Part shown: positions 1 to 62,143 of the stretch, one piece after another
Layout: each line of letters starts with the position of its first letter
Position numbering within the stretch: the stretch's first letter is position 1
Origin: Desulfobacterales bacterium
Lineage (GTDB): Bacteria > Desulfobacterota > Desulfobacteria > Desulfobacterales > 4572-123
Length of the DNA: 64,000 nt
NCBI GenBank assembly: GCA_029939715.1
Contig: JAOZSJ010000003.1
Coordinates: 1,880 to 65,879 of the forward strand
Reading direction: 5' to 3'
Notes under the pieces: model-generated
The model's database searches: none
What the model was told of the DNA's origin: nothing
Seen by the model: only the letters and a program-made list of their open reading frames with translations
Position numbers and translations under genes: made by a program

Positions 1-1080
1 AATATCATCAGCCCCGCTGCCGCCAAGGATAATGTCATCACCGGCATTGCCGTATATCACATCATCTCCGGTCGCAATTGCAAAAGCTCTGATAATGTCA
101 ACAGCACCGCTGCCGTCTATCGCAACCTGGCCGTTATCACCCACCAGGATGTCATTGCCGGAATCTCCGGTTATTTCATCACCTCCGGCCCCGCCGAAGA
201 TAATGTCATCATCCTCGTTACCGGCCAGGGTATCATTGCCGCCGGCCGGTGAATCAATATTCAGAGTCCTTACTGTCCGGTCGCCCCATTTATCGATAAC
301 GGCGATCCCAACGTCGCCGATTATCGTATCTTTGCCGCTGTTACCGGTTATGCAGTCATCCCCGCTGCCGCCGAAAATAATATCGTTGCCGGCATCTCCG
401 GTTATGCTATCGTTGCCGTCGTCAAGCCGGCCAAGGGCTTTAGCAACAAAGCCGTCATCCTCGCTGAAAAGAACAGTTCCGTCATCTCCAAAAAGGAGAT
501 CCATACCATCACCGCCCCGGATCAAATCGTCTCCGGCCTGCCCGTAAACTATGTCATCCCCGCTCCCGGCCCGGATCACATCATAAGTTCCGATTGCATC
601 GTCGGTGACGGAGACTTGAGTTGCATATCCACCTTCCAGGCGATCGGCATCCGGTTCAATGATTCCACCATCTCCCAAAATCACATCATCTCCCTCACCA
701 CCTGTCAGGGTATCGGCTCCGGTGTCGCCGATAATGACGTCATCCCCTTCATGTCCTGCGATCTCGTCCTCATCATCGCCGCCAAAAAGAAAATCGTTGC
801 CCATGCCGCCGGAAATAAAATCCCCTCTGCCGTTTTCAGAACCGGCGGATGCAGCGCTGACAAGGTTTTCAACAGATTTTTCAACAATCCTGTCACCGTC
901 AAAGATGGTTATGAAATCATCTCCGAATACAACCTCCCCGGCATCACCGAAAAGCATCATGTTCTCTGTCCAGTTTTCACTTTCAACGGTGCCGATCAGG
1001 TCATTCCCGTCTCCGCCGAAGACAACGGCAAGCCCGTTTTCATTTTCGCCGTCATCTTCAAGAATACAGGTGTCATCCCC
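1..1080 (-). repeat. RTX-type Ca-binding nonapeptide repeats running off the window edge
   Basis: Hand translation of 1-69 gives GDDVIYGNAGDDIILGGSGADDI. Hand translation of 661-831 gives GRGDFISGGMGNDFLFGGDDEDEIAGHEGDDVIIGDTGADTLTGGEGDDVILGDGGI. Confidence 0.85.
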
Positions 1081-28000: not shown

Positions 28001-31000
28001 ATTGCCACCGCGGCGCTGAAGCGGCCTGCAAGACCGGCATCGGTGATTATCAGGAGGCCTTCACCTCCGGAAACGCTGACAAATTCCGTGGTGCCGTCGC
28101 CAAGACTTAACCCGGCGCCGGATACAGCCACGCGAATCACACTCGATCCTGCAGCGGTTGTTGCTTTCTCAAAGGCAAAATTGCCGGTCAGTGTCTGGCC
28201 TAGGATTTCAAGATCGAGATTTTCGATCTCCACTTTAAGGTACGGACCTGCCGGCAGTTCCAGGAGGCGTGTATCGTTTCCAACCGTAAACTCACTGGAA
28301 ACCGCCTGGCCCGTATTGTTTACCGATACCGTGACGCTGTCCACAGTTGTCGTCGTAATTCCGGGAATTGTCAGTGTTACACCTGCACTGATTTTTCCCG
28401 CCAGCCCGTCGCCGGTAATAATAAAATAGGCCTCACCGTTTTCAATTGTGACATAATCGGTGGTACCTGAGCCGATATGCAGTTCCACCCGGGTTGCACC
28501 CATCCGTACAATTCGCTGATTGTCGGCAGTTGTGGCCTGCTCGAAACTGAAATTTCCGCTTAACTTCTGGCCGAGTACTTCCAGCGAAGCAGTGGTGCCG
28601 TCCTCGATCCCCGTAATATCCACCTTCAGGTAGGGACCCGCCTGCAGATCAAGGGTTATCTCTTCATCACCGACTTCAAAGGTTTCAAGGACCGCCTGGC
28701 CGGTATTGTTGACAGCTATGCCAAATGCACCCTCCAGGGAAATTCCGGGAATATTGACGGAAACATCAGCACCCAGATAGCCGGCAAGGCCCGCGCTTGT
28801 GATGAGGAAACTGCCCTGTCCGTTGGTGACCGATACAAAATCCGTATGACCGTTGCCAAGGCCGAGGTGGACATTTACAGCAGCAATCCTGACGGCATTT
28901 TCGTCATCGGGCGTACCGATCAGGCCGTCGATGCCTGCGCTTGTAACGCGCTCAAATGCAAAATCACCGCCCAGCGTCTGCCCCAGGATATTCAAATTGA
29001 CGCCGACCCCTTCAACTCTCAGGTAGGGACCGGCCGGGAGATCAAGTGTGATGGTCGTTCCATCAAGAATTATCGTATCGTTTACAGCCGACGGGATATT
29101 ATTAACCGAGAGTTCAAATGATCCGTTAAAAACAACCCCCGGCACGTTAAGACCGACACTTGCCCCGATTTTACCCGCAATGCCCGCACCGGTTATAAGC
29201 AGGGACCCGCTGCCCCGGGAAATGGAAACCGCATCACCGATGGCAAGACTGACATCAGAGGCTCCGAGTCGTATCACGCGCTGTCCGAATGAATTTATGA
29301 CCTGCTCAAAAACAAAATTACCGGAAAGATCATTATCAAGGATTGAAAGTGTGGCATCGGTGACTTCCAGCCTGAGATAGGGTCCTGCCGGAAGGTCCAG
29401 GTTGAATGAATCAAAACTTTCAGATACGGGCGCCGCGGTATTATTCATGGCAAGCCTTATCGTACCTGAGATGGACACGGCATCCAGGTCCAGGGTCATG
29501 GATGCATTCAGCATACCCGAAACACCGGCAGTGGTGATCAAAAGTGCTCCGGAATCAATTTCAATTGAAAGGATATCACCCGCATCGTCGCCAAAGCCAA
29601 GCGCCGCATTTACAATGGCAATTTTTACAATCCGCTCGCCGTCGGGTTTTGTAAGCTGCTCAAAGACAATCTGCTCCGCGGTCAGTGAAATCCCGAGAAT
29701 TGTCAGGCTTGCAGGAGTTGTCCCCTCCGACGCATCACCGATGCTCCCTCCAGAGACGGGATTCAATGCATAAAGTCTGTTTAATGCACCCGTGTTTACA
29801 ACAACCAGTTCAGGGCCGGTGGCGGCAGTGTTCACATCTCCGGCAAGGATTGAAACGGTGGCATCCGCATCTGCTGTAATATCGGAAGCAGACCATGCAC
29901 CGGCGTTATGGGTATAAAGCCTGTTAATTTCATTATAATTACCCGCGGCAATATCAAGGTCGTTGTCTCCGTCGGCATCAAAAAAGGCAATGGCCCGGGT
30001 ATCGCCGTCATCTAACGTTATATCGGCACCGGCATCAAATCCGGCCCAGATGTTGCCGGCGGTTCCCGAATTCAGGTAAAGCCGGTTTACGCCGGTATTG
30101 CCGGCAGCCAGATCAAGGTCTCCGTCATTATCAATATCGCCAAGGGCAATGGCATGGGTTTCACGCGCGTCCGTGGTTAAATCCGTGCCCGGGCCAAATC
30201 CCAGCCAGTCCCCGCTGTCCCCGTCAAAGGCCAGCCATGCACCGGAATTTTCATCATAGCCCGGATTCAGGTAAAACCGGTTTACACCGTTATTACCGCT
30301 TACAATGTCGGAAGCACCGTCACCGTCAATATCGCCGCAGACAATGGAAGTCGTCGAATTTTCGGCATCGGAAACTGCAAGGCCCTCTTCAAACCCGATC
30401 CACTCACCTGTCGCATTGTCAACTCCCCGGTTAAAATAAATCCGGTTTACCCCGCCATGACTGGCTGCGATCAGATCGACATACCCGTCTTTGTTAAAAT
30501 CCTCAAGGGCAAGATCCCTTGTGTCGTCGGCATAGGTACCGATAATGCGGCCCACGGCCATATCCCAGGGGTTATCGTCTCCGTCATTTAAATAGGTAGT
30601 GTTGGCCTGATTAGAATTTCCCGCAACGAGATCAAGGTCCCCGTCATTATCAAGATCGCCAAGGGCAAGGCAGGAAGTTGCATCAGTCTCAAAACCCACG
30701 TTAAGGCCGAAAACCATATCCCATGGATCTCCATCTCCGTCATTGAGATAGAGGCGATTCATGGCAAGGGCGCTTCCGACAACAAGATCAAGGTCGCCGT
30801 CGCCGTCTACATCGCCAAGAACCGAACAGGTATCATCGGCAGTATCGTTATCAATACCGGCCACTTCCACACGCACATAGGGTCCGGAAGGCAGGATGAG
30901 GGTCATGGACCTGCCGCCTGCTTCAAAGGACTCTTCAATCTGCCGGTCGGTACTGTTAATGGCAAGTTCGATGCCGCCGTTAAAGGAGACCCCAGGAACA

Positions 31001-34000
31001 CTGATGTCGACATCACCGCTCAACCTTCCCGCAAGCCCGGCGGCGTTGATCACCAGCAGTCCATGGCCGTTTGAAATGCTGACAAAATCGGTTGTGCCGT
31101 CCCCTAAGCCAACATTTACCTGATTTGCTGCAATTTTAACGATATCCGTATCATCATCATCCCCTGTAATCCCGTTGGGTCCGGCAGACCTGATCTGTTC
31201 AAAGGCAAAATCGCCGCTGATTCTCTGGCCGAGCAACCGCAGATTTACGTCGGTGCCCTCGAATCGCACATAGAATCCGGCAGGCAGGTTAAGATTGATG
31301 CTCTCCGTACCGACTTTGAACTGCTCATTTACCACACTTGTCGTCGTATTGATGGCAAATCCGAAGGTTCCGGAAAATTCAAATCCAAGTGATGGATTAA
31401 AGATGACTGTCCCGCCAAGGCGCCCTGCCAGACCGCCGCCCGTAAAGACAAACATCCCCTCTCCGTCAGTGAGTGTAACAATCGGGGTTTCTCCGGCCAT
31501 CATTTCAAGAGAGACATCAGTTGCGGCCAGAGTTAAAATCATGGGAGGTGTGAAATCCGGATTTTCTGCTGACTGCGGACTGTAATTACCTGTAATTCTT
31601 TCAATAAAAAAGTTTCCGGAAAGTTTCTGTCCGGCGATTTCCAGTAAGGCATAAGGATCGGTTCCGCTGCCGGTTATGGAGAGCCTGAAATACGGTCCGG
31701 CCGGAAGATCCAGGATAATGGTTTCATCGTCTGTGTCTATGGCGGGGTCGTGTCCCAGAATAAACGTTTCGTTTATCTGATTATTTGTATTGTTGATGGC
31801 AATGCCGATGGCCCCGCTGAAAGAGACAGGGCCTACTTCAAGGGATTGAATATCAACAGATACCTCTCCGGCAAGTCCGTCTCCTGAAATCAGCAGTGCA
31901 CCGCTTATGTCTTCAATTGTGACAAGATTAGAGTTCCCGTCGTTTAACGACAGGGATGCGCCGGCCACTGCAATCTTGATATCACCGGCTTCATTTTTAC
32001 CCGGTGTGGCCGGATCATCCGCACCCTTTTCAAATAAAAAGGTTCCGGAAAGAACCTGACCGAGGATATCCAGATCAATGGTGGCCTCAAAGCGTCTTGC
32101 GCCGTAATTTATCGTATGATCGACACTGCCGCCGTTGCCGTCGGGTACGGAAACAATCGTCTCACCGCCGATGTCACTGTATTGTACAACCGCACTGCCG
32201 GAAAAGGATACGCCCGGAATACCGAGAATCATGACCTCCCCTTCGGCATACAGGGCATAGGTGTATGGGCCTGATCCGGACCGGATCAGACCGATGTTGG
32301 CGTTGTCCAGGAGTACGCCCCTTGCATCGGGATTGATACTGCCGTCTTCAAGCTTTACCGGTCCCTGGCCCATGAAAACGGAGATTCCGCTGCCGGAAAA
32401 AGAGCCTCCGGTAATATTGATTTCATCGCCTTCAATGATGACGAAATCACCGATGTTGATGGAGGCTCCGGAAATGATAAAGTTAAAAAAGGTGGAAGGA
32501 TCAGCGATCTCACCGTCACCAAATTCTATTGTAAGGCTCTGACCGTTAAGCTGAATCTCCTCATAAACCGTATGCGATGTAGAATTCAGGCGCAGTTTCA
32601 CGCCGGCACCTGCATCACAGCCGCCGATGCCAAGCGATAGCTGTCCGGAAACAAACCCGGCAATACCGTCGGAATAAATGACAAAAGCGCCCTGGCCCTG
32701 ACTTATTTCAAAATTATCTCCATCAGAATAATCAAAAGAGACATCCGACATGGCAAAGCGGGTTATTTTTACATTATCAGCATTTGTGGTCTGGTCAAAA
32801 AAGAAATTGCCGCTGAAGGAGACACCGCCCACGGACAATGTCAATTCCACCACCGATACCCTGACAAAGGAACCGCCCGCCAGATCGTTTTCATCTATAT
32901 CGCCGTCATCATCCAGGTCAAAGGGAAGCGGTCTTGTGTTGATTTCAACCCTGGTTGTGCCGCCGCTCACGGTTACTCCGGGAATATTCAATATATCAAG
33001 TGTAACATCAAAACTTGCCGCAATCCCGAGGCTGTCAATAACAAAAACAGCGGAACTGCTGGTTACAAGGACAAAAGGATCTGAATCAGAACCTAATTTG
33101 AGTTCAAAATCGGTCACCCGGAGAGTGAGCCTGGTGCCTTGAGGCGTATCTTCTATTTCAATGGCAAGGCTTTCACAAACGATTGACTGCCCGGCAATAT
33201 CAATATCAATATTCGTACCTTCGATGAAAAAACCATCTTCGATCAAAATTTCATCAATAGTTTTTTCACTGCCCGTGGTGTTTATTTTCACCTGGAAACT
33301 GCCGTCAAAATCGACCCCCGGAACATTGACGCCCACGCTTCCGGAAAGATAACCGTACAGGCCCTTTTCAACGACCACACCGTTTTCAAATATCTTTATG
33401 ATTTCAAAAGCACCCTGGCCGTTTGTGACCTGTATTATACTGTTATCCCCTTCACCAACCTTGAGTTCGACATCGGCAAAAGAGACCCTCACTGCCGTGG
33501 AAAGACCGGATGAAGTGCTCTGCTCAAAAACAAAACCGCCGGTGAGCAGAACCCCGCCCACTGAAAGCACAATACTGTCGCCTGCAACCCTCACATATGG
33601 ACCGGCCGGCAGGTCCAGCGTTTCTTCAACGTCGCCTGTAATAAAAGTTTCATTAACAATATGCCCGGTGGTGTTTATTTCCACGTCAAGGATTCCGCTG
33701 ACAACGATACCAGGGATATTTAAAGATGCACTGCAGCCGAGGCTGCCTGCAATTCCAGTGCTGTCTATCACGAAATTGCCATGGCCGCTGCCCACCGTTA
33801 AAATGCCGCTGCCAATGTTCATGGCAACCTGGCCTGCGGAAATTTTGACAACCTTTTCACCGCTGTCCCGGGTGGACTGCTCAAATGCAAAATTTCCACT
33901 CAGAGTTTGACCGAAAACGGAAAGGAGCACACTGTCACCGGCGATCAAAAGGTAAGGCCCGGCATCGAGTTCAAGTGTCAAAGTGCCGGATCCTGCCTGT

Positions 34001-37000
34001 ATGATTTCCGATACCGCGGCATCGGTTGTATTGATCTTGAGTGTGAAATCACCGCTGAAGGATACATCATCTCCTGCCTCTACACTGACACCGGCAGAAA
34101 GAGTTCCGGCCGCACCGGCTCCGGTAAAAACAAAGAAGCCTTGCCCATCAGTCACGGAAACGATGCCGTCGGCAAGGGAGATCTCCACATCCGATGCGGC
34201 AACGCGCACTACTGCCTGCCCGTCTGCACCGGTAACCTGTTCGATGACAAAATTGCCTTCAAGGGTCTGACCCAGGAGTGAAAGGGATGCCCGAGTGGTG
34301 TCATCCACCCCGGTTACTGCAACTTTGAAATAAGGACCTGCCAGAAGAGCTGCAGGTTCGGCATCAGGTAAAAGCTGGATATCCCCGGCAGCAGCGGTGG
34401 TGTTCACAAGCACAGTAAAACGGCCGGATAAGGATATCCCGGATAAATTTACGGCAAGGTCCGTGGAGAGCCCGCCCATGAGCCCGGCACTGGATATTTC
34501 AAAAAACCCGTATCCATTTGAAAGGCTGATGACGGGCGTAGTGCCCCCAAGGGAGATGGCAACGTTTTCCGCACGGGCACGCACAAGTGTATCGGCGTTT
34601 TCCGTGACCTGTTCAAAGACAAAATCACCTGTCAATGTCTGGCCGGATATGGACAGGCTGACATCTGTCCCGGCAAGGCGCACATAGGGTCCGGCGGGAA
34701 GTTCAAGGGCCACGGGTATGGAACCGGCCATGATGGTTTCATGGACATCTACACCGGTTGTGTTGATCTGCAGGTTAAGGGTTCCGGAAACTGCAACATC
34801 CGGGATATGAACGGCAACACTGCCTGAAAGCTCTCCTGCCAGGCCCGCGTCTGTTATAAACAGGGCACCGGTTCCATGAGTAACTGTGACCAGATCATCT
34901 GAGCCGTTTTTCAGGGAGAGCGTCACGTTGGCAGCGGCAATCTTTACAATTTTTACAGGCTCGGGATCCGATGTAACCGTCTGTTCAAATGAAAAATCTC
35001 CGGAAAGACTCTGGCCAAATACCTCAAGCTGCAGGCCGGTCCCCTCAAATCTCAGGTAGGGTCCAGAGGGCAGGATTAATTCAAGAACATTTGAATCTAC
35101 AAGGAACTGCTCATGAACGGCAAAGGTGGAAGTATTTACGGCGAGACTGAGATTACCGGCAAAGTTGATGCCCCCCGGGATTTCCATGGTGACCGTGCCT
35201 TCGAGTCTGCCGGCAAGGCCTGAATCGCTGATGACAAACATACCCTGTGCCTCTGTGAGGCTGAGGATATCATTTGATCCTGCTGTCAGGGAAAAGCTCA
35301 CATTGTCCGCCGCCAGTTTCACGATGGATCCGCCGGCGGGCGATGTCAACTGCTCAAAGGCAAAATCACCGCTGAGCGTCTGCCCCATAAGTTCAAGGCT
35401 GACATCCTGACCTGCAATCCTCATAAACGGCCCGGCACGAATATCCATGACAAGCTGTTCTTCTCCGAATACAAATATCTGGTTCACCGCTGCATGGGTC
35501 GTATTGATTTCAAGGGCAAATGTACCCGCAAAATCCACACCGGGAATATTCTCGGTAATGGCTGCCGATACGCTGCCGGCAATGCCGCTTCCCGTAAAAA
35601 TAAAGGACCCGCTGCCCTGGGTGATACTGACAAGATCGGTTGATCCGTCACCCATGGACATACTGACATCATTTGCAGCCACGCGAAGTGTGCCGGCCAT
35701 ATCGCCACTTGTTATTTTATCAAAGGAAAAGTCACCGGCAAGACTCTGACCGAAAAGGCAAAGTTCGGTATCGGCTACCTGCAGGCTAAGCACCTGGTCG
35801 CCGGAATCAAAGGTAACCGGGACGCCCTCGTCATTTGAACCCGGAATGGAAAGTGTTTCATTTATTGCCGTGCCGGTTGTATTGACCCTGACAGAGGCTG
35901 TTCCGCTGATGGTGATACCGTCAATACCGATAAGCGCAACGCTGCCCGTGGCATATAATGCAAAGGTATCTCCCTGGGCCTGTGTAATTTTTATCAACCC
36001 TATTTTTGCATCGGAAAGAAGAACGCCCGAGGCAAGGGGATTAATATCTCCGTTATCCAGTTTTGCAGGCCCGCTGCCCATGAATATCATCAGTTCATCA
36101 CCGGCAAAAACAAGCCTGTTGCCGTTTTCCACAAAACTGATATTGCCCTCGATTGAAATAAAATCGGCAATATTCAAGGAAAGGTCTGAAATGGAAAAGG
36201 AAAAAATGTCGCCTTCGGATTCTCCAAAACGGATCACAATGGATCGGCCGTTAATATCTATGGTTTCATCAACGGCCCCGCCGGTTTTATTGACACGCAG
36301 GATAATATTTCCACTGGCATCGGCTACGCCTGCATCAAGGGATGCCGAGCCGGAAACGACACCTGCGACACCTGCCGAAGATACGACAAATCCGCCTTCA
36401 CCGTCGGTGAGACTCTGGTCTCCGATGGCCACTGTTACATCCGATACGGCCATCCGGGTAATTTTATCATCATTTTCATCCAGGCGCTGATCAAAATAGA
36501 AATTCCCTGAAATTGCAGGAGAACCGGCCCCGATGGTTATTTGCGCGCCGATGATGGCCACCCTGACAAATGATCCCGCGGCAAGATTCAGTGTGATGGT
36601 TTCACTGCCGATTTGAAATGTCTCGTTGACAGGGGCCGGGGTTGTATTGATTTCAAAGGAGACCGTTCCGCCGCTGATTGATACGCCCGGCACATTAAAT
36701 ACGGGATCTATTGAAAATCCGGCGGCCACTCCGGAACTGCTGATGATCATCGCACCGCTGCCGCCGGTTATGGCGACAAACGGACTGGCAGGATCGCCGA
36801 GAGTTAAATTAAGCGCCGATGCCCCCAGTCTGACAACGCGCTCTCCTCCTGCAGTGGTGATGGATTCAAAGGTAAAATTGCCGCCAAGGCTCTGACCGGC
36901 GATCTCCAGTGATACGCCAACGCCTTCTATCCTGACAAATTTATCCGCCGAAACCGTATCGATCTCAAGGGCAAAGGTACCGGAAAAACTCAAATCCGGG

Positions 37001-40000
37001 ATATTGGCGCTCAGTTCGGCACCTGCAATCTCCCCTGTTACACCGGCACTGCTTATGGAAAGATTGCCGGATGCAATGGCTGCGCTGATAAAATCGGTGG
37101 TCCCGTCACCAAATCCGACATATGCGTTGGAAAGAGCCAGTTCGATGACATCCCCGTTTTTTATAAAAGCGAAATCACCGCTGATGGTCTGACCGAGAAT
37201 ACTGATACTGACATCTTCTCCTGAAATTTTCAGATATGGCCCGACAGGAAGATTTAAATAGATCGAACTGTCACCTGCGGTAAACAGTTCATTCACGGCA
37301 GCAGTTGTCTGGTTGATCTGCAGAGAAAATATTCCGCTTACATCAATTCCAGGGATTGTAATTGTAACAATACCGCTGATCTCACCGGCAAGGCCTTCGG
37401 GTGTCAGCAGGAAGCTGCCCTGCCCGTTTGACAGCGAAACAAGATCGGTTGACCCGTCACTCAGAGCAAAGCTTATATTTTCAGCCGCCACCCGGACAAG
37501 CTGTTCACCGGTATCATTGATAACGCTTTCAAATGCAAAATCGCCGTGGATTGCCTGATCGAAAATCACCAGGTCAAAGTCAACGGCCTCAAGGCGTATG
37601 TAGGGGCCGCCCGAAAGATCGAGTACCACACTTCGGCTGCCGGCAGTCATCGTTTCCAGCACAGGGCTGTCCGTAGTATTGACGGCAAGCTGGATATCGG
37701 ATCCAAAATCAATCCCGCTCACGTTGCTCAACGATATGGAACCGCTCAAACGGCCGGCAATGCCCGATCCGGTTATGATAAAAATTCCATCGCACCGGGC
37801 CCGAACACCAAAGTCATCGCTTTCATCGGCTGTATTTTGATCATCACCGATAAAAATTTCAACATCCATGGCACCAACGCGAATGATTGAACCGCCGCCG
37901 TCCGCAGCGGCCATTTCAAAAATAAAACTGCCTGAAAGTGTCTGGCCCAGAATATCAAGCTCGATATCGGTCCCTGTAATTCTTAAAAAGGGCCCGGCGG
38001 CAAGGGTGACATCAACATCATTGCCGGTTGTAAAAGTGACCTCGGAGCCTGTGGTATTAATACCAATCCCCATGGCACCCTGGAACTCGACACCGGGAAT
38101 ATCAGCTGCGACAAAAGCACTGAGCACTCCGGTCAGGCCGTCGCTTGTATATATAAAGGTGCCCTGGCCATCGGTGACATCCAGAGAACTGCCTCCGGCC
38201 TGGCCCAGGGAGAGCGAGACACTGTCAGCACTTATTTCAATAACCCGGCTGTCATCTTCATTGCCCGGCGTACCATCGGGGTCAAGGGTCAGCACCCCGA
38301 AGCCGAAATTACCGGTGAGGGTCTGGCCCAGCACCGTCAGTTCCATGTTGGTTGCCTGAAAGCTTTTGACCAGATCACCGGTGCTGAAAAAGACAGCAAC
38401 ATCACTGTCGGTTCCCGGAATTTCAAGAAGCTCATCCACAGCCAGGCCCGAGTTGTTGATCCGAACCCTTGCCGTGCCTGAAATCGTGATGCCGTCAACG
38501 CCGATTATGGCCACTGTTCCCGTTGCATAAAGTGCAAACCGGCTTTCCGAATAGTTGATCATCCCCACGGCGGCATCGAAAAGAAGGACACCGGCAGCAG
38601 CCGGGTTTATCTCCCCGCCGTTCAGCCGGGCAGGTCCCTGGCCTATGAAAATCTCAAGGCCAAAGCCTGCAAACCACTGGTAATCGCTTGCCGATGTATA
38701 GCTGAAACTGCCTTCGACGGAAATAAAATCGGCAATTCTAAGGCTCATATCAGCGCCGAAGATCTGGAAAAAAGGCGTTATGCCGCCCGCACTGCCGGAG
38801 GCCGTTTCGTTTTCACCGAAACCGACATGAATTAAACTCCCGTCAATTTCAACGTTTACGTCCACCGCTGACAGGGTTGAATTAATTCGAAGGCCCAGAC
38901 TGCCGCCGACACCGAAGTCATCTCCGGCGGCAATTGAAATTTCTCCTGAAATAATGCCGGCAATACCGCCGGGTGTAACCACAAAAGCACCGTCGGCATT
39001 TTTAACGCCGTTACCGTCAAAGGTGAATGAACCGTCAAGGACCGCCAGTGTAGTGACTGTTTCCAGCGTCCCTGCCCCGTTGTCTGTTGTCTGCTGCTCA
39101 AAGCCGAAGGTACCGGTGAGTGCCAGGGCATCGGCCTCGCCGATATTTACCGCAACATTTTTACCCACTACCTTTATATAAGGACCGGCAGGCAGGTCCA
39201 GCAGGATATCGTCTGTACCTGGAAGCGAAAAGGATTCACTCACCGCAGCCGCACTGGTATTGATTTCAACATCAAAGGATGCATCTGTCGTAAGACCGGT
39301 GATGCTGATATAAAAATCTCCCCCGATCATGCCGGCGATTCCGGTTTCCATGATCACAAGGGCTCCATGGGCGTTGGTGATGCCCACTGAATCCGACGCA
39401 AGGGAGACGCTGACCCCTGTTGCAGCCACACGGACGATCTTTTGATTATCGCCGGCGGTCAGTCCTTCAATCACAAAAACACCCTTTAAGGTCTGGCCGG
39501 CGATGGTCAGGACTGCAAGATCATTTTCATCTGCGCTGATTTCACCGCCTGCAATCCTGAAGTATTGAGCGGCCGTATCGATTTCAGCATTAAATATCCC
39601 GGCAAATTCGATGCCGGGCAGATCGACCTCTATTTGCGCCTGGGTCAACGTTCCGGCAATACCGCTGCTGCTCATGGCAAGACTGCCCGATTCGATGGTG
39701 ACACTTACAAAATCTTTTGTGCCGTCGCCAAGACCTATGTGCGCGTCACTGATGTGAATCTCAACATCACTGCCGTTTTTAACAATGGAAAAATTCCCGC
39801 CGATGGTCTGGCCGAGCATTTCCAGCTTGACATTCTCCCCGCCGAACCGAGATGTGCCCGCGGCCAGATCCAGGGTCTTTGTGATATTGCCCACGGTGAT
39901 CCCACGCAGAACAGCATCGGAGAAAGTGTTCTTCTGCATCCCGAGATCACCGGATAAAGTCACGCCGTCGATACCCACAACAGACGCCAGCCCCCCGGCC

Positions 40001-43000
40001 TCAAATGCATATCCGCCTGGAGCGATAAGCACCATGAGCTCGGCACCGGAAACACGGACGCCGATTTCCTCACTGTCACTGCCCACAAAAAGATCCACCC
40101 CTGCAGCGGCAATCAGTATCTGTGTCGGGCCATCAGGTGATGTTGTCTTTTCAACGGCAAAACTGCCGGAAAGGTTCCCAAGGGGGGTTTCAAGGGTTAT
40201 ATCATCCGCCCCCAGCCGGCTCATGCCCGCGGCAACATCAAGGATGACCGGTGTAGTGCCGACGGTGATGGATCGATTCACATCCGTAGTCATGGTATTC
40301 TGACTGGCACTGAGAACGCCGCTGAAAACCAGTTCAGGGACACCTGCAATTTCGGCGCTGCCGCCGGCATTAAATGCGTAGGTGCCGTCGGGTTTGATCA
40401 AAAGGGCAAATTGAGCCCCACTGACCCTGACGCCGAGGTCGTCGCCTTTATCCACGGTCTCATTATCATCACCTGCAAAAAACTCGATGCCGGTGCCACC
40501 GGCAATAATTTCATTGGTTACGCTGTTCTTTTCAAAATAAAGTGATCCGGTCAGGTCTGCCACGGGGGTGGACAGGGTAATTAAATCGCCCGAAAAACAG
40601 AGGAGATCGGTATCATCAGGCCCGAAATCAAGAACATGGTCCGTTCCATTGATATTGATCACCTGATGGACTTCATTGCCTGTGGTATTGGCACGCATGG
40701 ACAGGGAGCCGCCAAGGGAGAGGATGCCTTCAAGCCCGGTAAGCGCCACATCCCCGGATGCATCCGCCGCAAATGTAGAGTTGTCGTAAATCACCATCAG
40801 TAAAGAGGCGTCGCTTAATGAAATTCCCACCGAACCGGGTACACCGAGAAAAGTGTCCACATTAATGGCGCCGATCTTGATAACAGGGTCTGAAGGGCCG
40901 GTGGCATCGGATTTTTCAAAGAAAAAATCCCCCTGGATGGATACAAAATCCTCTATTTCTAGGTCTGCAAAACCGGACATGCGAATAAAACTGCCGGCTG
41001 CGTCAAATGTCAACGGTATGCCCGAGACTGTTTCATTGACACTGATACCGGTGTTGAACTCCAGATCAAGGCCGGCACTCATGACCAGATCGTCAATGCC
41101 CGAAAGGTCCGCAACCCCGGCTGCCCTTCCGGCCATGCCGTCCCGGGTCAGGATAAAGGCGCCAAACCCGCCTGCAAGATCCAGGTGTACATTTTCACTC
41201 CCGATGGAAAAAGTCACATCAGAGGCAGTAAAAATCATCGCTGTGCCTGATTGTTTAAAGACAAAGCTGCCCGTGAAAGTCTGGTCAAAAATAGTCAGAT
41301 CGACCCCGGCAGCTTCCACGCGGATAAAAGGACCGGCGGAAACATCAACCACGAGCACCTCTGCCCCGGAATTTTGAATCGTTTCGTAGACAGCAATATG
41401 GGTGGTGTTTACTGCAAGCGTTATATCTGCCGCCATGTTGACCGCACCGGGAATATCGATGGTTGTATGAGCGGACACCTTTCCCGCAAGGCCCGTGGAA
41501 GTCAGTAAAAATACACCATTTATACCGGTGATTTCAGCAAGGGGGTCGGGGTCGTCTCCGTCGGTGAAAAGAATATTTCCGGAGGTAACAGCCACGGTGA
41601 CCGTCTGGGTGTCGTCATCGGTGCCGGCCTGCCGGTCCGGACCGTCTGCTCTCTTTTTCTGAAAAATAAAAGCGCCGTCGGTAATCTCCTGATCGGCAAT
41701 CCCGAGGGTCAATCCAGTGCCGGAAACCGTTATATCGCTCCCGGAAATATCCAGGCTGATATCAGCGGTGAGGATTATGCCGGTATCCGGATTTACATGG
41801 ACGTGAGCCGAGGCCGAACCGGTAAGGCCCGAATCACTGTTCAGGGTAAAACCGCCATGGACCTGAGTCACCGAGACCAGTTCGGTTGTACCGTCACCCA
41901 GCAAGAAGGCCACGTTATCAAAGGCCACATCTATCATTGCCTGGGTTCCTGAACTCACGTCAAAATCAAAATCACCTTCAAGGGTCTGGCCGGCCACATG
42001 AAGTTCCACCCCCGTGCCTGAAATACTGAAAAAGTTGGTTTCTTCATCTGAAAATTTTATCGATACCGTGTCGGTCCCCATCAGGAAAGTCTGATCCACA
42101 GCGCCATCGGTGGTATTCATGTCGAGGCGGAAGGCTCCCGAAAAATCAACATCAGGAACGTTGAAGGCAACCGAGGCGCCAAGGGTTCCGGCAAGCCCGG
42201 TACTGCTTATAACAAAAAATCCTTGACCGTCCGAGAGGGTTAAATACTCACTGTCTGCCGATCCAAAGCCGATCCTGACATTGGATGCGGCAGCGACTAC
42301 GGTCTCTCCTGCCTTTTCAACGGCAAAATCACCGGTCAGGGTCTGCCCGTAAACCGTAAGTTCCACATCCCTGCCGTCAATACGGAAATAGCTTCCCCCG
42401 GGCAGATCAAAATCAAAGTTAATGGTTTCACCGTTGACTTCAATGGCCCCTGTCTTTGCTACCGGAACAGGCATGGTGTTGACTGAAACGGCCAGGCCCG
42501 CTCCGAAAGCGACATCAGCAGAAGCGTTGATTTCAATTCCGGCCTGCATGGTTCCCGCCAGCCCCTGGCTGTTAATTACAAAACAGCCGAACTGGCCTTC
42601 TCCCTGGGCAATGCTGACCGCATCTCCAAGATTAAGTTCCACACCGGAAAAACAGACCGTGAGCAATTTTTCACCATCTTCTGCCGTCACCTGATCCAGA
42701 GAAAAAAAGCCGCTGAGGATCTGGCCGAGAACAATCAATTCAAGGTCGCCGGAAAAACTCATATCGCCGTCACTTACCGTGACGGGATCACCGCCTGTCG
42801 TAAAGGTATAATCAAAACCGATATTATTGAATCGAACCGATGCCGAGCCTGAAAGCTGCGCATCGGACACCCCGAGCAGTTCCACATCACCTTCGGCATA
42901 AAGGGCGTATGAAGAACCGCTTTGAAAAATTTCCACAGATCCGTTGTCCATCAAAAAACCGCTGGCCGCAGCACTGGTTTCCCACAGTTCGGGATCATCA

Positions 43001-46000
43001 CCTGTTTTGACCTTGGCAGGTCCTTTGCCCATGAAGATGCTCAGCCCGGTGCCGGAAAAAACTCCGTTGCCGCCAAAGGAGATCTCATCTCCCTCTATGG
43101 TGACAAAACCGCCTATATTAAGGACAAGATCCGCACCGAAAAACATGAAATAAGGGCCGGTATCGCCGGCAGTTTCGGCAGCACTGAAACTGATGACAAT
43201 TTCACGGCCGTCCAGAATAATGGTTTCATCAACGGATAAACCGGTGGTATTGATCTTGAGTCCGATGCTGCCACCCATATCAAACCCGCCATCAGCGCTG
43301 ACACTGACCTCACCTGAAACCGTACCGGCAATTCCGCCGATATCACTGCCGCTACCGGCAACTATGACAAAAGCACCCTCTCCGTTTATAATTCCGTTGC
43401 CGTCGTAGGTCAGCGAAATACCGGTCATGGCAATTCTGGTCACGCTTGAACCGTCGGGCCGCTCACTTTGATCAAAACTGAAACTGCCTGTAAGTTCAGT
43501 GCCGTTGATGCCGAGGATCGCGTCGGTAACCACGATCCTTACAAACGGACCTGCGCCAAGGGATAGATCTATGGTTTCACCGGCGACCTCAAGGGATTCA
43601 TAAACCGGGACATCCGTGGTGTTCAACTCAATCGACACCCCGGCATCGGCAAGTGATATTCCCGGGACATCAAAATAAGCCGTTGCTGCAAAACTGCCGG
43701 CCAGACCGATGCTGTTGAAAACAAAAACGCCCTGACCACCGGTAACTCCCACATAGTCATTTTCGGTACTGCCAAGAGTCAGGGCAACATCGGATAGGCC
43801 TATAAGGACAATGGCTGAATTGTCGGCGGCGGAAAACTGCTCGATGCTGAAATTTCCGGAAAGAGACTGCCCTGCCGCGGACAGGCTCACATTACTGCCG
43901 CTTACCCGGACATATTTATCCGTGGGCGAGGTGGTATCGATGGCAACGGAAAATACACCTGAAAAAACAACTCCGGGAACCTGGGCTGTAACCAAAGCCT
44001 GGTCAAGAAATCCTGTAATACCGGAACTTTTAATCTCAAGACCGGCGAAATCCGCTGCCACATGGACAAAATCGGAAGTACCGTCCCCAAGAGAGAGCGT
44101 CACCGAATCAGCGGAAAGCGCAACCGTCGATTCACCGCTGTTATCGTCAAATCCGTATTCAAATTCAAAAATTGCGGCATTGAGCCGGATACCGAGGATA
44201 TGAATATGACCGCCGGCAAGTGCCGTCCGCACAAAAAAACCGCCCGGTTCCGCGGCTTCCACCGTCTCACCTGCCAGGGTATGGGCGGTTTCGGTGGTGT
44301 TGAAAAGCAGGGAGACCGTGCCCTCAAGGGTAATGTCACCGCCGAAATCAGGCCCCTGTACAGCGGCATTTACAGCCGCTCCGGCAATACCGTCCGGCGT
44401 AAAGATAAATGCAAATTCCGCATCTTCAATACTGATTACACGGGTCAGTCCTGCCTGCAGTATAAAGTCCAGGTTTTCACCGGAGATGGAAACATCTGCA
44501 CCGCTCTTTTCAAGGGTAAACCGGTCGGCACTCAGCCTGTTTTCAAACACGGTCAGGCTTCCGGAAGCTATTTCCACCCGGACATAGCCGGTGGCAGCGG
44601 CATCTACTGTAATGGTCTGATCATCTATGACCAATGTCCGGGTCTGCCCGGTTGTGTTGACCAGGAGCGAAACGACACCGTCAAGTGAAATATTTTCCAG
44701 ATCCGGTCCTGATACGACGGCATTGATCACACCGCCGGCAATGCCGGTGTCGGTAAATATGAATCCAAAATCAGCATCGTTGATCTCGACAATCCGGGTT
44801 ATGCCGGCCTGCAGTAAAAAGTCCAGATTTTCACCGGAGATTGATACCTCGGCCCCGCTTTTTCGCAGCACAAGGCTATCGGCTGTCAGGCGGTTGCCAA
44901 GAATTTCAAGGGCTGCGGGCTCGTTATCCGACAGGGCCGTTATGCCTAAATAAAAATAGGGACTGTTCGTCCCGGCCGCGGCAACGGTCAACGATTTTCC
45001 GTTTAATTCGAAGGTCTGCACTGTTGTGGTCGTATTAAAGGAGAGCGACAGTTCTCCGGCAAGAGAAATACCCGAAAGTGCAGGACCATTAAAATCGGTT
45101 ATCACAACCCCGCCGGCGATACCGTCATGGGAAAAAATGAATCCGAAGTCGGCCTGCAGGACTTCAACAATCGTCGTTCCACCGGCGGCAAGGTTGAAAC
45201 TGAAGCCCTGACCGGTGACCGTCACTTCAGCGCCGCTTTTTTCAAGAACCAGACTCTGGGCCGTAATTGTGTTGTCCAGTATATCCAGTGTTGCCGGAGC
45301 ACCTGTTTCGGTATCTTCACTGATTTCCACCCTGAAATAAGGGCTGCCCGTCTCGGCCCCTTCAACGGTGATAGTTTCAGTAGTGATATTTTCAAATGAC
45401 TGGATTGTTGCCGTTGTATTGACAAACAGCGACACCGAACCTTCAAGGGTGATAAAATCAAGATCCGGACCGGTCACATCCGCATTAACCAGCACACCGG
45501 CAATACCATCGGAGGTAAAGCGGAATCCGAAAGCAGCATCATTTATCTCAATAATCCGGGTGGTGCCTGCCTGCAGGAGAAAATCAAGGCCCTGCCCCGA
45601 AACATCGATCACCGAACCGCTCTTTTCAAACACCAGGTGATCGGCTGTCAACGTGTTGCCCATAATGCCCAGCTCCGCATCAAAAATCACAGCCTTGACA
45701 TAGAAGCTGTCCGCACCGGCACCACTTACTGAAACAACCTGGCCGCCTGCCATGATCTCCCTGGTGGCCTGTGTTGTATTCACAAACAGATCGGCCCTGC
45801 CGCCAAGGGTAATTTCCCCGGCAAAATCAGGCCCAAACATCCGGGCATCGACAACGGCGCCGACTATCCCTTCCGAATTAAGCTCAAATGCAAAATCCGC
45901 ATTAGTTACAGAGAGTATCCGTCTGTTTTCAACCCCGAGCCGGAATGCAAAACTTAAATTGTTTCCTGAAATGCCGACAACGGCTGTATCGCTGCTGTTT

Positions 46001-49000
46001 TCTTCAATCACCAGCTCATCGATGGAAAAGTCAAAGCTGTCCATCACAGTCAGTGTTATACCGGTACCGACAATTCTGACAAACGGTCCGGCTTCAAGAC
46101 CCAGGGAAAGCAGGGTATCATCAATTGTTGTTTCCAGGTTTACAGCCAGGCCGGTGCTGTTTAAAGACAGCCTGAAAGTCCCTGCCAGGGCAGCTTCCGG
46201 ACCGGCTATGGAAACCCTGGCCCCGCACTCGCCGGCAATACCTTGGGAATCAAGGATAAAAAAACCGCTGGCCTGATCGACAACGACAAGATTTGATCCG
46301 AGGTTAACTTCAACATCATTGAAAACGGCGGTCACAACCGCGTGATTTTCAGATGTAGTCTTCTGCTCTATGAAAAAACTGCCGCTCAGGGTCTGATCGC
46401 CCACGGCAAGTGTTGCCGGGCCGGTTACTTCAATCCTGAAATAGGGGCCTGCGGGAACACTAAGATCAATGGTTTGCCCGTTGACCTCAAAGTTTTTTAC
46501 AACAGCCTCACCGGTGCTGTTGACAGCCAGGGCCACATCACCCTGGAAAGAAAGGGAACCGATTGCCAGCCCGGCGCCAAGATCCAGCTTACCGGCAATG
46601 CCGGATTCCGTTATCAAAAGTGCACCGCTGATATCACTCAATGCTGCAAGGTCACCTGATTCATCACCTATATTCATAAAGGCGGCACTCACCCCGATCT
46701 CTATGGCGCCGTCTCCTCCAGCGGATCTTTCAAAGGAGAACGTGCCTTCCAGCACCTGATCAAGAATGGTAAGAGCAATGCCCCCTTCAAAACTCAAGGC
46801 TCCTGCGATGACTGAAATCGTACGGTCATCGGCCAGAACAACCGACTCGTCACTGCCTGTGTTGTTCACCCGTATAACCGCAGTTCCTGAAAAGGATACG
46901 CCCGGAATTCCCAGCAGCACCACCTGACCTTCGGCATAAAAAACATACTCACCGGCAGCCGGAGTATAAAGTCCGAATGAGGCATCCTGGAGAAGAATAC
47001 CGCTGGCACCGGGATTTATGGAGCCGTCATCAAGGACGCCCGGGCCTTCTCCAAGAAATATACTGGCATCTGCTGCAGAAAGCCGGCCGTCACCTCCGAT
47101 GCTGAAACTGCCCTCGATGACGACAAAATCGGCGATATTGATTCTGCCGCTGCCGAAGAACTCAAAAAGATCGGTTTCCGAAGAATCAAAGAAAATGGTA
47201 TAGATAACGCCGTTAACGTTGATGGTTTCATCAACCGATCCGCCGGTTTTGTTGATTCTCAGCCCCAGAGCCGCATCGACGCCGGCCTGGCCCCCTTCGA
47301 CATGCAGATCGCCGGACATGACGCCTGCAATTCCCCTTGCGGTAATAACGATTGCCCCTGCGCCGTTTTCAAGGGTCTGGTCGCCGATGGTAACTTCCAC
47401 CTCAGTGAGTATGATCCGGGTAATGACGGCACCGTCTGTTTCCCGCTGATCAAAATAAAAATTCCCCTGCAGCAGGCTTTCGCTGTTTCCGGCAATAGTT
47501 GCCGCTGCATTCAAGACAGCCACTCTTACATAGGGTCCTGCAGGGAGTTCAACAAGGTCAGGCGTTTCACCCATGGAAACACTTTCCGACCGCGTATTGA
47601 TCTCAATTAAAACATCTGTTGTATCCAGCTCGAACTGGTCAATCTCAAGGGCAATTGTACCACCCAGCACACCGGAAATGCCGGCATCACTGATATTCAA
47701 AATACCGGTTGTGACCGCAGCTTCAACAAAATCGGTGTTCCCGTCACCAAGGGTAAGGTCGGCATTTGAAACCCCCAGTGTAATCTGATCACCGCTCTTT
47801 TCAAACAGGAAAATACCGCCAAGGCTCTGGCCGGCCGCGGTAATGGAGCCTGCCAATTCGACCTTAAGATACTCGCTGCCCGCTTCAGTCGTATCAAGTT
47901 CCAGCTTAAAGCTGCCGGCAAGTGCAATACCTTCGATCCGAGAGGTAAAATTTTCAAGCAGATCCAGATCAATGGCGGCGATGATCCCGTTTTCGGTTAT
48001 CTGCATGAAACCGCTGCCTGCAAGACTGGCCAGGCTTTTTTCACCGGCGGCAAGTTCAAGTTCATCGATTCGGGTGGTTACGGCAATATCAATGCCGTTT
48101 TTCTCAAAAATAAAAAGACCGGCTATGGACTGATCAAGGAGCGTCAGCGCCCCGTCTAATTCAACCCGCAAATAAGAATCACCGGTTTCATTGACAGCCA
48201 GGATTTCCGGAAGCGCCTCTCCGCCGATGGCGGTAATTGTTTCACCTGTGGTATTGAGCTTAAGTGTAAAACCGCCGTCCATTGCCAGATGATCAAACCC
48301 GGTTGTAGAACCCGCGGCGACGGACAGTTCGATAAACGCACCAATACCGCTGGTGTTTATCAGCATTGAACCTGCACCGGTCAATTCAATCAGGCTTTTG
48401 TCGCCTGCCTTCAGCTCAAGGCTGTCGATATCTGCACCAGCCCTGATAGAGGCGCCGTCTTTTTCGAAAACAAATTTTCCGGCAAACAGTTGATTAAACG
48501 CTGTCAGGGTCCCATCCATCTCAATGAGAAAATATGCATCCCCGGCGTCATTTACCGCAAGCTCTTCCACAAGAGGCGTTCCACCTATGTGGGTGACCGT
48601 TTCACCGGTGGTATTAATTTTAAGATGAAAAGTTCCGTCCAGTGAAACCAGATCGATGGTTGAATCCGCAGTCAATGTCAAATCAAAAACGGCGGCAATG
48701 CCCTTTTCACTGATCTGGATAAAACTGTCTGTGATGGAAAACAGAGCAAGACTTTTAGCCTCATCTCCGGCACCTGTTTTTAAATCCAGGATAGCGGATG
48801 TGATATGAACAAAAATATTCCCATTGTCCAAACCAAAAGAAAAATCCCCCGAGATGGTCTGCCCCAGAATTTCCCAGGAACCGGAAATATCGGCAGACAG
48901 TGATTTGCCGGCCAGAAATGAGGCCAGTGCATTTTTCATACCTGGGTCATCCGCGGTACTTACCTGCAGATCATCAGAGGCGTTCACCACTTCGAGTACC

Positions 49001-50781: not shown

Positions 50782-51019
50782 AAGCAAATGACAACTGAGC
50801 AACCTGCCATTTTAGAAAGTGACAAACGGGCAGGCCTGAGTTAGAGTAATATCCGGATAATATAAGCTATTTGGAAACCCGGCTGGCAACATAGTGTTTA
50901 ATAATGCACCATAACGAACGTCTCTGCTGCAACTTTAAATAAAATATTATCTGCTGAATATACATTATTTTATTATTAAATCAACAATAATCAGCAAAAT
51001 TGTTCCGGTAATGATTCAA

Positions 51020-51693
51020 TCACAGCTCCCTAATAAGAGATCTGGCCGTCTTCCAGAGCCCTCTCCTTTCTTCAATTAACTCGCGCAGTAATCGCACCCT
51101 GTTTTCAGTTGACCCGCCATATTCATCCGTCCGATTGTTGGTTTTAGAAGATAAAAAAGGTGAAATCAAATAGTTGTGGGTTGCATACACATAAATGATA
51201 TCAAAGCCGGCGGTTTTGGCGCGCCTGGCAGCAGCCACATGCCATCTCCGAATTTTTTCTAATCGGATTTCCCCATAATACTGCTTTGAACCGGGTCATT
51301 GAATACGGCCGGTCTGCTGTATGCTGCCAACGGGGCCTCACGCGAATATAAATTCGCAACCTGATGCCCGCCATGCCATGGTTCAACGCCTGCCAGTGAT
51401 CCATGTTCATGCACCTTTTCAACCATTAAGGCGTTTGCTTTAATGTCTTCTTCATCCCAGAGACAGGCATGCGGATACGGTATATCTTCTGAAGTAGGAT
51501 GGATAGAACAGTATTCCGTATTAACGACACCCCAGCCCCCTTCCGCCTTCATTCCCCGCATCGCAGCGAGTGTATTGGGCATTCTGTAACCCATGCCGGT
51601 GGCATGAGGCACCTGATAAAATCTGTTTTTTGCTGTGACCGGACCTATTTTTACCGGTTCAAATAATATATCAAAGTAGGGACTGCGAGTCAT
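51020..51693 (-). pseudogene. Frameshifted and 3'-truncated Old-Yellow-Enzyme-family flavoprotein gene, closest in my recollection to the N-terminal domain of trimethylamine/dimethylamine dehydrogenase
   Basis: ATG at 51693 with an AAGGGAG RBS 5 nt upstream. [36 protein letters not shown]...AEGGWGVVNTEYCSIHP parallels the TMADH N-terminus ([23 protein letters not shown]...KAEGGWAALNTEYCSI). That frame stops at 51259-51261 (..MGKSD*). The homology then continues in another frame (LEKIRRWHVAAARRAKTAGFDIIYVYATHNYL...NNRTDEYGGSTENR) and ends at 51020, around residue 225 of an expected >600 aa. Confidence 0.75.
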
Positions 51694-51776
51694 GAAAACT
51701 CCCTTGTATTTATTAATGTTATGTACTTTCACCTGTTTTGATATCTTTGACAAATGTGGCGGAACCATCGACATTA

Positions 51777-53207
51777 TCAATCGGAAAGCACAAGTTTATC
51801 GTATTTTTCCAGTATTGTTTTTCCCTGTTTCAAAATTTCCGAATCCAGAGCAGGCACAACATGATTTTCAATTAGGTCTTTGGCTACTGCTCTCGCTTCC
51901 GGGACCATATTGTTGGACAGAGTTGTTTGCATAGCCAGTTTCTTTTTATCCCACAGGGTGAGTTCTTTCTTGAAATTGGCAAAAGTATGTTCGTGCTGTA
52001 GAAAATCTTTACCGGGGCCCACCTCTTTAACAATATCCAAAGCTACTTTTTCTTCTGTGATTTCTTGATTTTTGAGAAAAGATTGATAGCAGTCCCATAA
52101 GTATGCATCAATCACCAGTTGTTCATAAGAGTTAGTTAACGCATTATTGGTAGATCCCAGTCCAGTGACTAAATCCGTCCCCATAACAGAAAGCGTTGTA
52201 GTAGCGGTTTCGCAGTAAGATTTGGACATACCGATAGCTCCGTCACTTCCTCCAAAGCACCCTGTTTCACAGGGCAGCCGATATCTTCCGGCCATTTGCG
52301 CTGCGGAATTGGAAATAAAAGGGAGTTCCGGCGCACGGTAGTTAACGCCGGCTGTTGTCATTTCCATGGGTGTGGACTCGACGGTATATATGTGAGGTGC
52401 CCCGGGCGATGCGGTTTGAGTTATTACCAGACTGGCCAGGTTTTCGGTATTATTGTTGGATATCATCCCCGCTACTGTGATCGGTGCTGAGATCCCCCCC
52501 ATTGACATGGACATGGAGCTGATTGGAACACCTGCTTTGGCGAATTCAACTTGCGCTTCCACGGCACCTTTTTCAAAGGTGAGAGGTGCTACAGGGCACA
52601 CGACGACAGATAAAATCGGCTTTTTTTTCAGATTCTCTTTACCACCTGCCACCAGAGCAGCTAATTCGATCTGCATTAATGCATCTTCAGCACTCTGTGC
52701 AGTAACGCTGGTTACATGTTTCGTCGTATTCTGCAATGTGATCCAGGCTTCATGGGCGCCGTGAGTCATGGTTGGAACATCGGAAAGAGTGATGGATGTC
52801 CAAACGTACCCAACACTTTCCAAAGCATCCGCCAGCCTGATAAATTTGGTCAGGTCCTCTTTTGTGGCGTTCCGTTCTTCTCCGGTTTCCAGATCAGAAA
52901 TAAAAACAGCCAATCCGCTGGTTGAGCATTTTGGCGGACCATTGACAGGAAGCGCAATATCATGTCTGGAATCCCGCCCGTAAAGAGTGAATTGACTGGG
53001 CGCGGATTGAAGCGCTTTGTTCACCAATATTTCCGGTATTTTAGCCACCATGCTGTCATAATCCACAACAGCACCCTGTTCTTCCAGCATTTTCAGCACT
53101 TTTTCACTGTGGATGCAGACACCAATCTCATTTAAACATTTAATACTCATCTCATGGATTAAATCTTCTTCTTTTTGATCCATGGTAACCATCTTTGCTT
53201 TGGCCAT
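51777..53207 (-). CDS. MttB-superfamily (trimethylamine methyltransferase family) protein, non-pyrrolysine type; probable quaternary-amine:corrinoid methyltransferase
   Basis: Track ORF of 476 aa with no internal amber codon and an AAAGAGG RBS 6 nt upstream of the ATG. Length and sequence character match MttB-family members. It is a paralogue of the ORF at 54585-56018. Confidence 0.75.
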   Translation of the reverse strand: MAKAKMVTMDQKEEDLIHEMSIKCLNEIGVCIHSEKVLKMLEEQGAVVDYDSMVAKIPEILVNKALQSAPSQFTLYGRDSRHDIALPVNGPPKCSTSGLAVFISDLETGEERNATKEDLTKFIRLADALESVGYVWTSITLSDVPTMTHGAHEAWITLQNTTKHVTSVTAQSAEDALMQIELAALVAGGKENLKKKPILSVVVCPVAPLTFEKGAVEAQVEFAKAGVPISSMSMSMGGISAPITVAGMISNNNTENLASLVITQTASPGAPHIYTVESTPMEMTTAGVNYRAPELPFISNSAAQMAGRYRLPCETGCFGGSDGAIGMSKSYCETATTTLSVMGTDLVTGLGSTNNALTNSYEQLVIDAYLWDCYQSFLKNQEITEEKVALDIVKEVGPGKDFLQHEHTFANFKKELTLWDKKKLAMQTTLSNNMVPEARAVAKDLIENHVVPALDSEILKQGKTILEKYDKLVLSD

Positions 53208-53332
53208 AATTACCTCTTTAAAAATGCTAATATTGTAGTGTGACTAAATTTAAGGAATGTTTCCTGCCTGGTTTGAAATTCATAACCTGATGTTTTTTGA
53301 TAAAAAGCACTTACATATCCTTCTTTATTCTT

Positions 53333-54469: not shown

Positions 54470-54504
54470 ATTTTTCTCCTTTTCCTTTAAAGATAAGCTT
54501 TTGG

Positions 54505-54580
54505 CTTTTAGCAGTTAGCCATTAGCTAAATGAATCCTTTGTCATTTCGAGCTTGAAAGCCAATAGCTAACAGCTAAAAG
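54505..54580 (-). repeat. Imperfect 23-bp inverted repeat (CTTTTAGCAGTTAGCCATTAGCT ... AGCCAATAGCTAACAGCTAAAAG) forming a long stem-loop 5 nt after the stop of the MttB gene at 54585
   Basis: The arms lie at 54505-54527 and 54558-54580 and pair at 20 of 23 positions by my alignment. No U tract follows on the minus-strand RNA. Confidence 0.55.
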
Positions 54581-54584
54581 TTAA

Positions 54585-56018: not shown

Positions 56019-56054
56019 AAATATTCCCCAATAATAGATACAATTTTTTCTTGA

Positions 56055-58574: not shown

Positions 58575-58591
58575 ATTAAATTTTTCCTGTC

Positions 58592-60288: not shown

Positions 60289-60344
60289 TTAATTTTCTCC
60301 TGGAAATAAAGCCCTTAAAAACCTGAAGCCTGCAGTAAAATTGA

Positions 60345-60390
60345 TGCGGCGGACAACAGAAAGTTCCTGTCCGCCGCACCGGTTTTTTTT
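60345..60390. terminator. Perfect 11-bp stem hairpin (TGCGGCGGACA / TGTCCGCCGCA, 12-nt loop) flanked by T8 on the plus strand; a possible intra-operon attenuator or bidirectional terminator between the binding-protein and permease genes
   Basis: The stems lie at 60345-60355 and 60368-60378, with the T run at 60383-60390. On the minus-strand transcript the hairpin is followed only by UCAAUUUUAC. Confidence 0.5.
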
Positions 60391-60415
60391 GTTTCATCAA
60401 TACGGATTAAAATGC

Positions 60416-61543: not shown

Positions 61544-61567
61544 TGTTGCCTCCAAGTTTATGGTTAA

Positions 61568-61597
61568 ATTAAAGTGGGACATGTCCATCATTGTCAA
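61568..61597 (-). promoter_or_regulatory. Candidate sigma-70 promoter of the transporter operon (-35 TTGACA, 18-bp spacer, -10 TTTAAT) with a 10-bp palindrome GGACATGTCC in the spacer
   Basis: Minus-strand sense reads TTGACAatgatGGACATGTCCcacTTTAATttaaccataaacttGGAGGcaacaATG. The -35 is at 61597-61592, the -10 at 61573-61568 and the palindrome at 61577-61586. Confidence 0.4.
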
Positions 61598-62046: not shown

Positions 62047-62143
62047 AACTTTTATTTTTAATAAATTTCATACTAACAAAAACAAAAAATGGTGTTAATA
62101 CAGAAGAAATTCAGCCTGCGGATAGACTTTTATGGCGGACAAT

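Follow-up and report, generated by a model that had tools for sequence, protein, structure and literature searches.

A frameshifted and truncated histamine/trimethylamine-dehydrogenase-type flavoprotein gene between a methylated-amine gene cluster and a giant gene in a Desulfobacterales bacterium

Iron-sulfur flavoproteins of the histamine dehydrogenase (HADH) and trimethylamine dehydrogenase (TMADH) type join a flavin mononucleotide (FMN)-binding barrel, similar to that of old yellow enzyme (OYE), to a 4Fe-4S cluster and an ADP-binding domain. The 64,000-nt stretch of a Desulfobacterales genome analysed here (assembly GCA_029939715.1, contig JAOZSJ010000003.1, positions 1,880 to 65,879; hereafter the window) holds, at its positions 51693 to 51064, what is left of a gene for such an enzyme. 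With a probability of roughly 0.85, we read this remnant as the non-functional relic of a flavoprotein gene of ~687 codons that belonged to a methylated-amine module and was killed by a frameshift together with a truncation. HADH (PDB 3K30, 6DE6) and TMADH (PDB 2TMD, 1DJN) have the same architecture as P0121, a complete 687-aa protein known from a JGI metagenome, which is the closest intact ortholog of the remnant. P0121 is encoded on a 4,053-bp contig of JGI 3300072015, on which a partial gene of 193 aa follows 414 nt further downstream. In contrast to these enzymes, the window retains just 30% of the gene, and in frameshifted form. The remnant, the operon upstream of it and the giant gene downstream all lie on the minus strand.

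The gene opens with an ATG at 51693-51691, where every homologue begins too, and a ribosome-binding site (AAGGGAG, 51705-51699) can be read from the sequence 5 nt upstream. From this start, fragment A (51693..51259) runs through 144 codons of the OYE-like FMN barrel (51693-51262) into a premature TAG at 51261-51259. It matches the Pfam family PF00724 (Oxidored_FMN) at profile positions 2-116 of 342 (E = 4e-22) and shares 87% identity across 147 aa with the copy found in the related locus L006. The homology is taken up in the -1 frame by fragment B, the homologous part of which (51262..51064; 65 codons, codons 145 to ~210 of the gene) reads LEKIRRW...ENRVRLLRELIEE and matches PF00724 at positions 153-211 of 342 (E = 1.6e-22). 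The barrel of ~340 residues is matched in these two parts only, and in two frames; its ancestry is clear and the domain incomplete. Frame B as a whole extends over 80 codons from 51262 to a TGA at 51022-51020, its final ~15 codons (RRGLWKTARSLIREL) being junction sequence unrelated to the family. This non-homologous tail (51063..51020) reads RGLWKTARSLIREL before the TGA, and the 3' breakpoint of the gene lies at its upstream edge. The limits of 51020 and 51780 given for the gene in a preliminary description of this DNA were essentially right, save that 51780 is the TTG of a mechanically delimited open reading frame and the gene itself starts at 51693. That frame (51259-51780), with its upstream TTG start, is reported as a protein of 171 aa by some gene callers.

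Joined end to end, the two fragments (209 residues) align without a gap to residues 1-209 of P0121 with 90.9% identity, and to other intact 687-aa proteins (L094, L089/P0122 and L174/P0242) with 83-87% identity. P0121 in turn aligns end-to-end with histamine dehydrogenase 3K30 (E = 3e-209; also with 6DE6) and with TMADH (E = 2e-160), and the assignment to the TMADH-type family is therefore correct: judged from these alignments, the remnant is a member of the histamine/trimethylamine dehydrogenase type. P0121 also aligns end-to-end with 6L6J, an uncharacterised Oxidored_FMN protein. Many close homologues are named 'dimethylamine/trimethylamine dehydrogenase' by JGI, no NCBIfam equivalog cut-off is reached by the clade of P0121 and the remnant, and the best genome matches of the flavoprotein are to other Desulfobacterales metagenome-assembled genomes (MAGs). 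The PF00724 matches, the identity to P0121 and the alignment of the latter to 3K30 and TMADH together bear out the preliminary description, which had recognised a dead TMADH-type gene at this place.

The remnant and P0121 carry VPHATGMGY in place of the VPHCNGMGY of 3K30. The Ala (window 51604-51606, codon 30 of the remnant; residue 31 of P0121) thus occupies the position of a Cys which we take to be the residue making the 6-S-cysteinyl-FMN link in HADH and TMADH. Some paralogs (P0127, P0128 and P0136) retain the Cys, which suggests that two cofactor-attachment states occur inside one gene cluster family.

The first of the two lesions is a frameshift. In a DNA alignment with L094, L006, L089, L174 and L007, the window has exactly one 1-nt gap, situated between 51261 and 51262, where it reads GAT[A]TAG and the relatives read GAT ATN, encoding Asp-Ile. 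The preliminary description had likewise arrived at the loss of a single base, which it took to be a T; on this alignment the simplest account is that the A of the conserved Ile codon was lost. It adjoins an A6 run, outside the homopolymer itself. This 1-nt deletion, at codon 145, brings the TAG into frame.

The second lesion is the truncation. At both the DNA and the protein level, homology to L094, L006, L089 and L007 ends after ATTGAAGAAA (LRELIEE), at ~51064-51067, with tblastn and blastn endpoints falling at 51062-51068. Everything past codon ~210 is lost, amounting to 478 of 687 codons (~70%) or ~1.43 kb, much as the earlier estimate of about two-thirds of the gene had it, and no frame of 50600-51062 resembles the remainder of the family. 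The second frame does run to its stop at 51020, as had been described, with homology ending earlier, at ~51064-51067. The absence of the 4Fe-4S and ADP-binding domains had also been noted; the loss is larger than that and extends to ~130 residues of the FMN barrel, its last third. Two FMN-phosphate motifs of P0121, VGRFTSP (residues 295-301) and GAARPSIADP (317-326), fall past the break and occur in no downstream frame of the window, nor does VGAGPAG (392-398). The 4Fe-4S motif CIGCNICx11C (343-361; pattern CxxCxxCx11C) is missing downstream of 51064 in all frames. The C-terminal ADP/NAD-type binding domains (GxGxxG; Pyr_redox_2 and OYE-like second alpha-beta), present in intact relatives, are absent from the window. 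One faint tblastn match (E = 28) of the post-break sequence to the last 13 residues of the family raised the case of a purely internal deletion, which was dismissed because the post-break DNA is only ~48% identical by eye to the 3' ends of the relatives, compared to ~80% in the coding part.

Both lesions are found well beyond a single assembly. The intact 476-aa MttB-family protein encoded immediately upstream of the remnant has exact copies on five other contigs, on all of which the flavoprotein gene is likewise split into fragments and precedes the giant gene. These derive from ENA ERZ23491059 and ERZ23491060 (different BioSamples), JGI 3300005264, GCA_029935855.1 and Logan SRR21545388, all of the same species. 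Their identity to the window is 99.7-99.96%, and every one of them has single-nucleotide polymorphisms (SNPs) of its own and no indel in 50400-52000. Frameshift and junction are common to all six. Since assemblies with differing SNPs share them, the comparison confirmed that the lesions are neither sequencing nor assembly errors, and their presence in all six makes them older than the divergence of these strains. One SNP specific to the window strain, at 51380, turns Leu into Pro (VELWHGG to VEPWHGG); the other five assemblies have T, and thus Leu, at this site. Leu is kept in at least 95% of homologues, and both alleles are present among the members of the cluster.

Despite its breakage the remnant has hardly degraded. 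It deviates at 3 of 93 strongly conserved positions, in the range of intact homologues (0-4), and of its three deviations one also occurs in the intact P0121 and one depends on how the frameshift is repaired. The inactivation therefore looks fairly recent. At most, a 144-residue piece of the barrel could be translated, which is predicted to be unable to bind cofactors, and, with the motifs and domains for cofactor binding lost, no functional product is expected of the locus. Colinear homology to a functional family, a disrupted frame and a disruption that is not an artefact are all present, and on this sequence evidence the locus is an ordinary pseudogene, apparently of recent formation and fixed in the population.

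Downstream of the breakpoint lies an AT-rich junction (50782..51063; 281 nt, 37.5% GC) that reaches to the ATG of the giant gene; that the break falls at this boundary had been seen from the outset and holds. The junction matches none of the 170-odd loci fetched and no other part of the window. It gave no Rfam hit, contains no notable repeats and has a fold z-score of 0.05. Neither mobile-element ends, flanking direct or inverted repeats, transposase remnants nor tRNA-like features were detected in it. Its promoter-like TTGATT-16-TATATT (50984-50957) and its weak terminator-like hairpin (51057-51041) do not rise beyond chance. The giant open reading frame (50781..1) exceeds 16,927 codons and runs off the window, its frame being free of stops from 50811 to 1; in the other assemblies it exceeds 17,004 aa. 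The start at ATG 50781 is real, since residues 12-32 match the LEPR-XLL N-terminal motif and distant relatives align from their residue 2. No Pfam domain was found in the first 3,000 residues. An exhaustive HMMER search with the first 400 residues returned only distant relatives of at most 43% identity, and neither a metagenome scan nor a word-indexed protein search yielded any. L175, the 43%-identical relative, has an upstream region of its own of 390 nt and 28% GC, which fits the junction at 50782-51063 being, as it probably is, the native upstream region of the giant gene. Relative synonymous codon usage correlates at 0.82 between the giant gene and the operon, and at 0.83 between the operon halves; the codon usage thus matches, and nothing marks the giant gene as a recent import.

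Upstream of the remnant stand eight genes on the same strand with short gaps between them. They comprise an ABC importer (binding protein, two permeases and ATPase; window 57450-61606) and the catabolic genes of the module: a DAO-type FAD oxidase, an MttB-family methyltransferase, a saccharopine-dehydrogenase-like gene and a second MttB-family methyltransferase. The latter, the immediate neighbour of the remnant (51777..53207; 476 aa), is an intact, non-pyrrolysine member of PF06253 (E = 9e-60), and its product is identical to OQY08210.1 of Desulfobacteraceae bacterium 4572_123, a MAG from Guaymas Basin hydrothermal sediment (PMC8318568). Both MttB genes are uninterrupted, with scores under the cut-off for true pyrrolysine-containing trimethylamine methyltransferases; the two types are only ~26% identical to each other. 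The five genes of the methylated-amine module (flavoprotein, two MttB, DAO-type oxidase and saccharopine-dehydrogenase-like gene) occur in permuted order in relatives, the P0123 contig among them. In the window (51780-57422 for the module) the order is DAO, MttB(a), saccharopine dehydrogenase-like, MttB(b), flavoprotein remnant. It is flavoprotein, MttB(a), DAO, saccharopine dehydrogenase-like, MttB(b) in L089; flavoprotein, MttB(a), DAO, MttB(b), saccharopine dehydrogenase-like in L006; and flavoprotein, MttB(a) and a 51-codon stump of the saccharopine-dehydrogenase-like gene in L174. In relatives the module often stands beside GGACT, B12-binding and P5C-reductase genes. The saccharopine-dehydrogenase-like gene of the window (53336-54469) has a third-position GC content of 0.65 against 0.44-0.54 in its operon neighbours, and may by this measure be of different or more recent origin. 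The importers that accompany the module in L006 and L089 share no more than 43-58% identity with the ABC importer of the window, and the transporter part has therefore been exchanged or is not orthologous. A 9-bp indel polymorphism relative to L001 and L002 was observed at window position 62069, in the gap that separates the gene for the ABC binding protein from a BTAD/TPR regulator gene.

With these surroundings in view, the origin of the truncation may be considered. In the most economical account, the 3' part of the gene would have been removed by a deletion or an illegitimate recombination whose far end fell within the AT-rich sequence preceding the giant gene, in the setting of a gene cluster whose order is visibly unstable among relatives. 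The preliminary description had proposed instead a rearrangement or insertion that brought in the giant gene. That some rearrangement took away the 3' part stands; no finding demonstrates that it imported the giant gene, given its native codon usage, a junction free of mobile ends and repeats, and the likewise AT-rich upstream region of L175. An insertion of the giant gene, or of its 5' end with the upstream region, into an intact flavoprotein gene that was thereby split would account for the break sitting exactly at the start of the AT-rich region and for a junction sequence without counterpart beside the intact orthologs of relatives. The adjacency of giant gene and operon is moreover not ancient, since two distant relatives of the giant gene adjoin unrelated upstream genes (one SecA-like, the other encoding a response regulator), which do not settle what its ancestral neighbour was. 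Against an insertion speak a codon usage as close to that of the operon as the operon halves are to each other and a junction devoid of repeats, transposase remnants and tRNA-like features. Further, no large 3' remainder from the same samples was found among the best 120 database matches to the missing part, a search which small or unannotated fragments would escape. We regard insertion as unlikely, though it is an explanation with a real if small chance. All available contigs break off within the giant gene and therefore do not distinguish deletion from insertion. Several points weigh against our reading of a relic truncated by deletion: the deletion mechanism is deduced, as no genome was found that combines the giant gene with an intact ortholog; P0121, the closest intact ortholog, was compared as a protein, the DNA-level comparisons being with other relatives; and the conservation of the broken form across strains is uninformative on selection because the strains differ by only ~0.2%.

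Explanations under which the gene would be intact or functional fare worse. In favour of the frameshift, the junction or both being due to sequencing or assembly errors, the site lies beside an A6 run, and all sequences involved are metagenome assemblies, not reads. The missing base, for its part, is not within the homopolymer, and six assemblies that differ by SNPs show both lesions without any indel, so that the read error envisaged in the preliminary description as a refutation of the frameshift fails; we consider an artefact highly improbable. A functional short protein might also arise from a programmed -1 frameshift, fragments A and B standing in a -1 relationship, or from reading of the TAG as pyrrolysine, the organism belonging to the marine Desulfobacteraceae, among which relatives using pyrrolysine and selenocysteine have been described (PMC8318568). 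Read-through of the TAG in frame A, in contrast, leads to no family homology and meets TGA, TAA and TGA by codon 226, and no in-frame X_XXY_YYZ slippery heptamer is present at the site. Even a fusion of both fragments would end at codon 224, with 209 residues homologous to the family, or two-thirds of a barrel, and would have neither FMN-phosphate motifs nor an Fe-S cluster nor nucleotide-binding domains; the window strain has since acquired the Leu-to-Pro change at a conserved site. Recoding to a functional product is, in our estimate, next to impossible. On the reading of a dead gene it may be asked whether its loss was neutral. A speculative proposal, to which we give a slight chance, holds that it was not: in the absence of a convincing terminator, the giant LEPR-XLL gene would have come partly under the substrate-responsive transcription of the operon, and loss of the enzyme would have been favoured repeatedly in amine-demethylating (MttB/corrinoid) Desulfobacteraceae of anoxic sediments, as the broken copies in L006 and L007 might illustrate.

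The main value of these observations lies in the annotation and metabolic reconstruction of the Guaymas Basin MAG; they have no wider significance. Public entries for this MAG and its relatives list the two fragments as individual small proteins (144 or 171 aa, plus 72 aa) with an Oxidored_FMN hit, so that a model of its pathways could include an amine dehydrogenase that the organism cannot make from this locus. The cluster of MttB, flavoprotein, DAO oxidase and saccharopine-dehydrogenase-like genes is rearranging and decaying in these Desulfobacteraceae.

The remnant finds close parallels in related loci. Two ortholog or paralog copies, in L006 (10001-12063) and L007 (3644-5706), are 78-86% identical to it and also frameshifted. 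Each carries an independent 1-nt deletion at or beside a run of A: in L006, A7 has become A6 at PKKIEEG, and in L007 the deletion follows A6 at PKKSDD. Unlike the remnant, both are still full length (379 + 289 and 389 + 289 codons, respectively) and adjoin no giant gene. In L006, an intact 689-aa tandem paralog lies immediately upstream of the broken copy. L088 was left unused as a further truncated copy, nearly every gene being split in its assembly, and P0122 and P0126 were rejected as intact paralogs in the same genome, as they come from other samples. Compared to unitary bacterial pseudogenes formed by a small indel plus a deletion, the locus has the same features, namely homology to the family, a premature stop caused by a 1-nt deletion, a 3' truncation, fixation and intact neighbours, and presents no notable difference from them beyond a remnant that is unusually well preserved.

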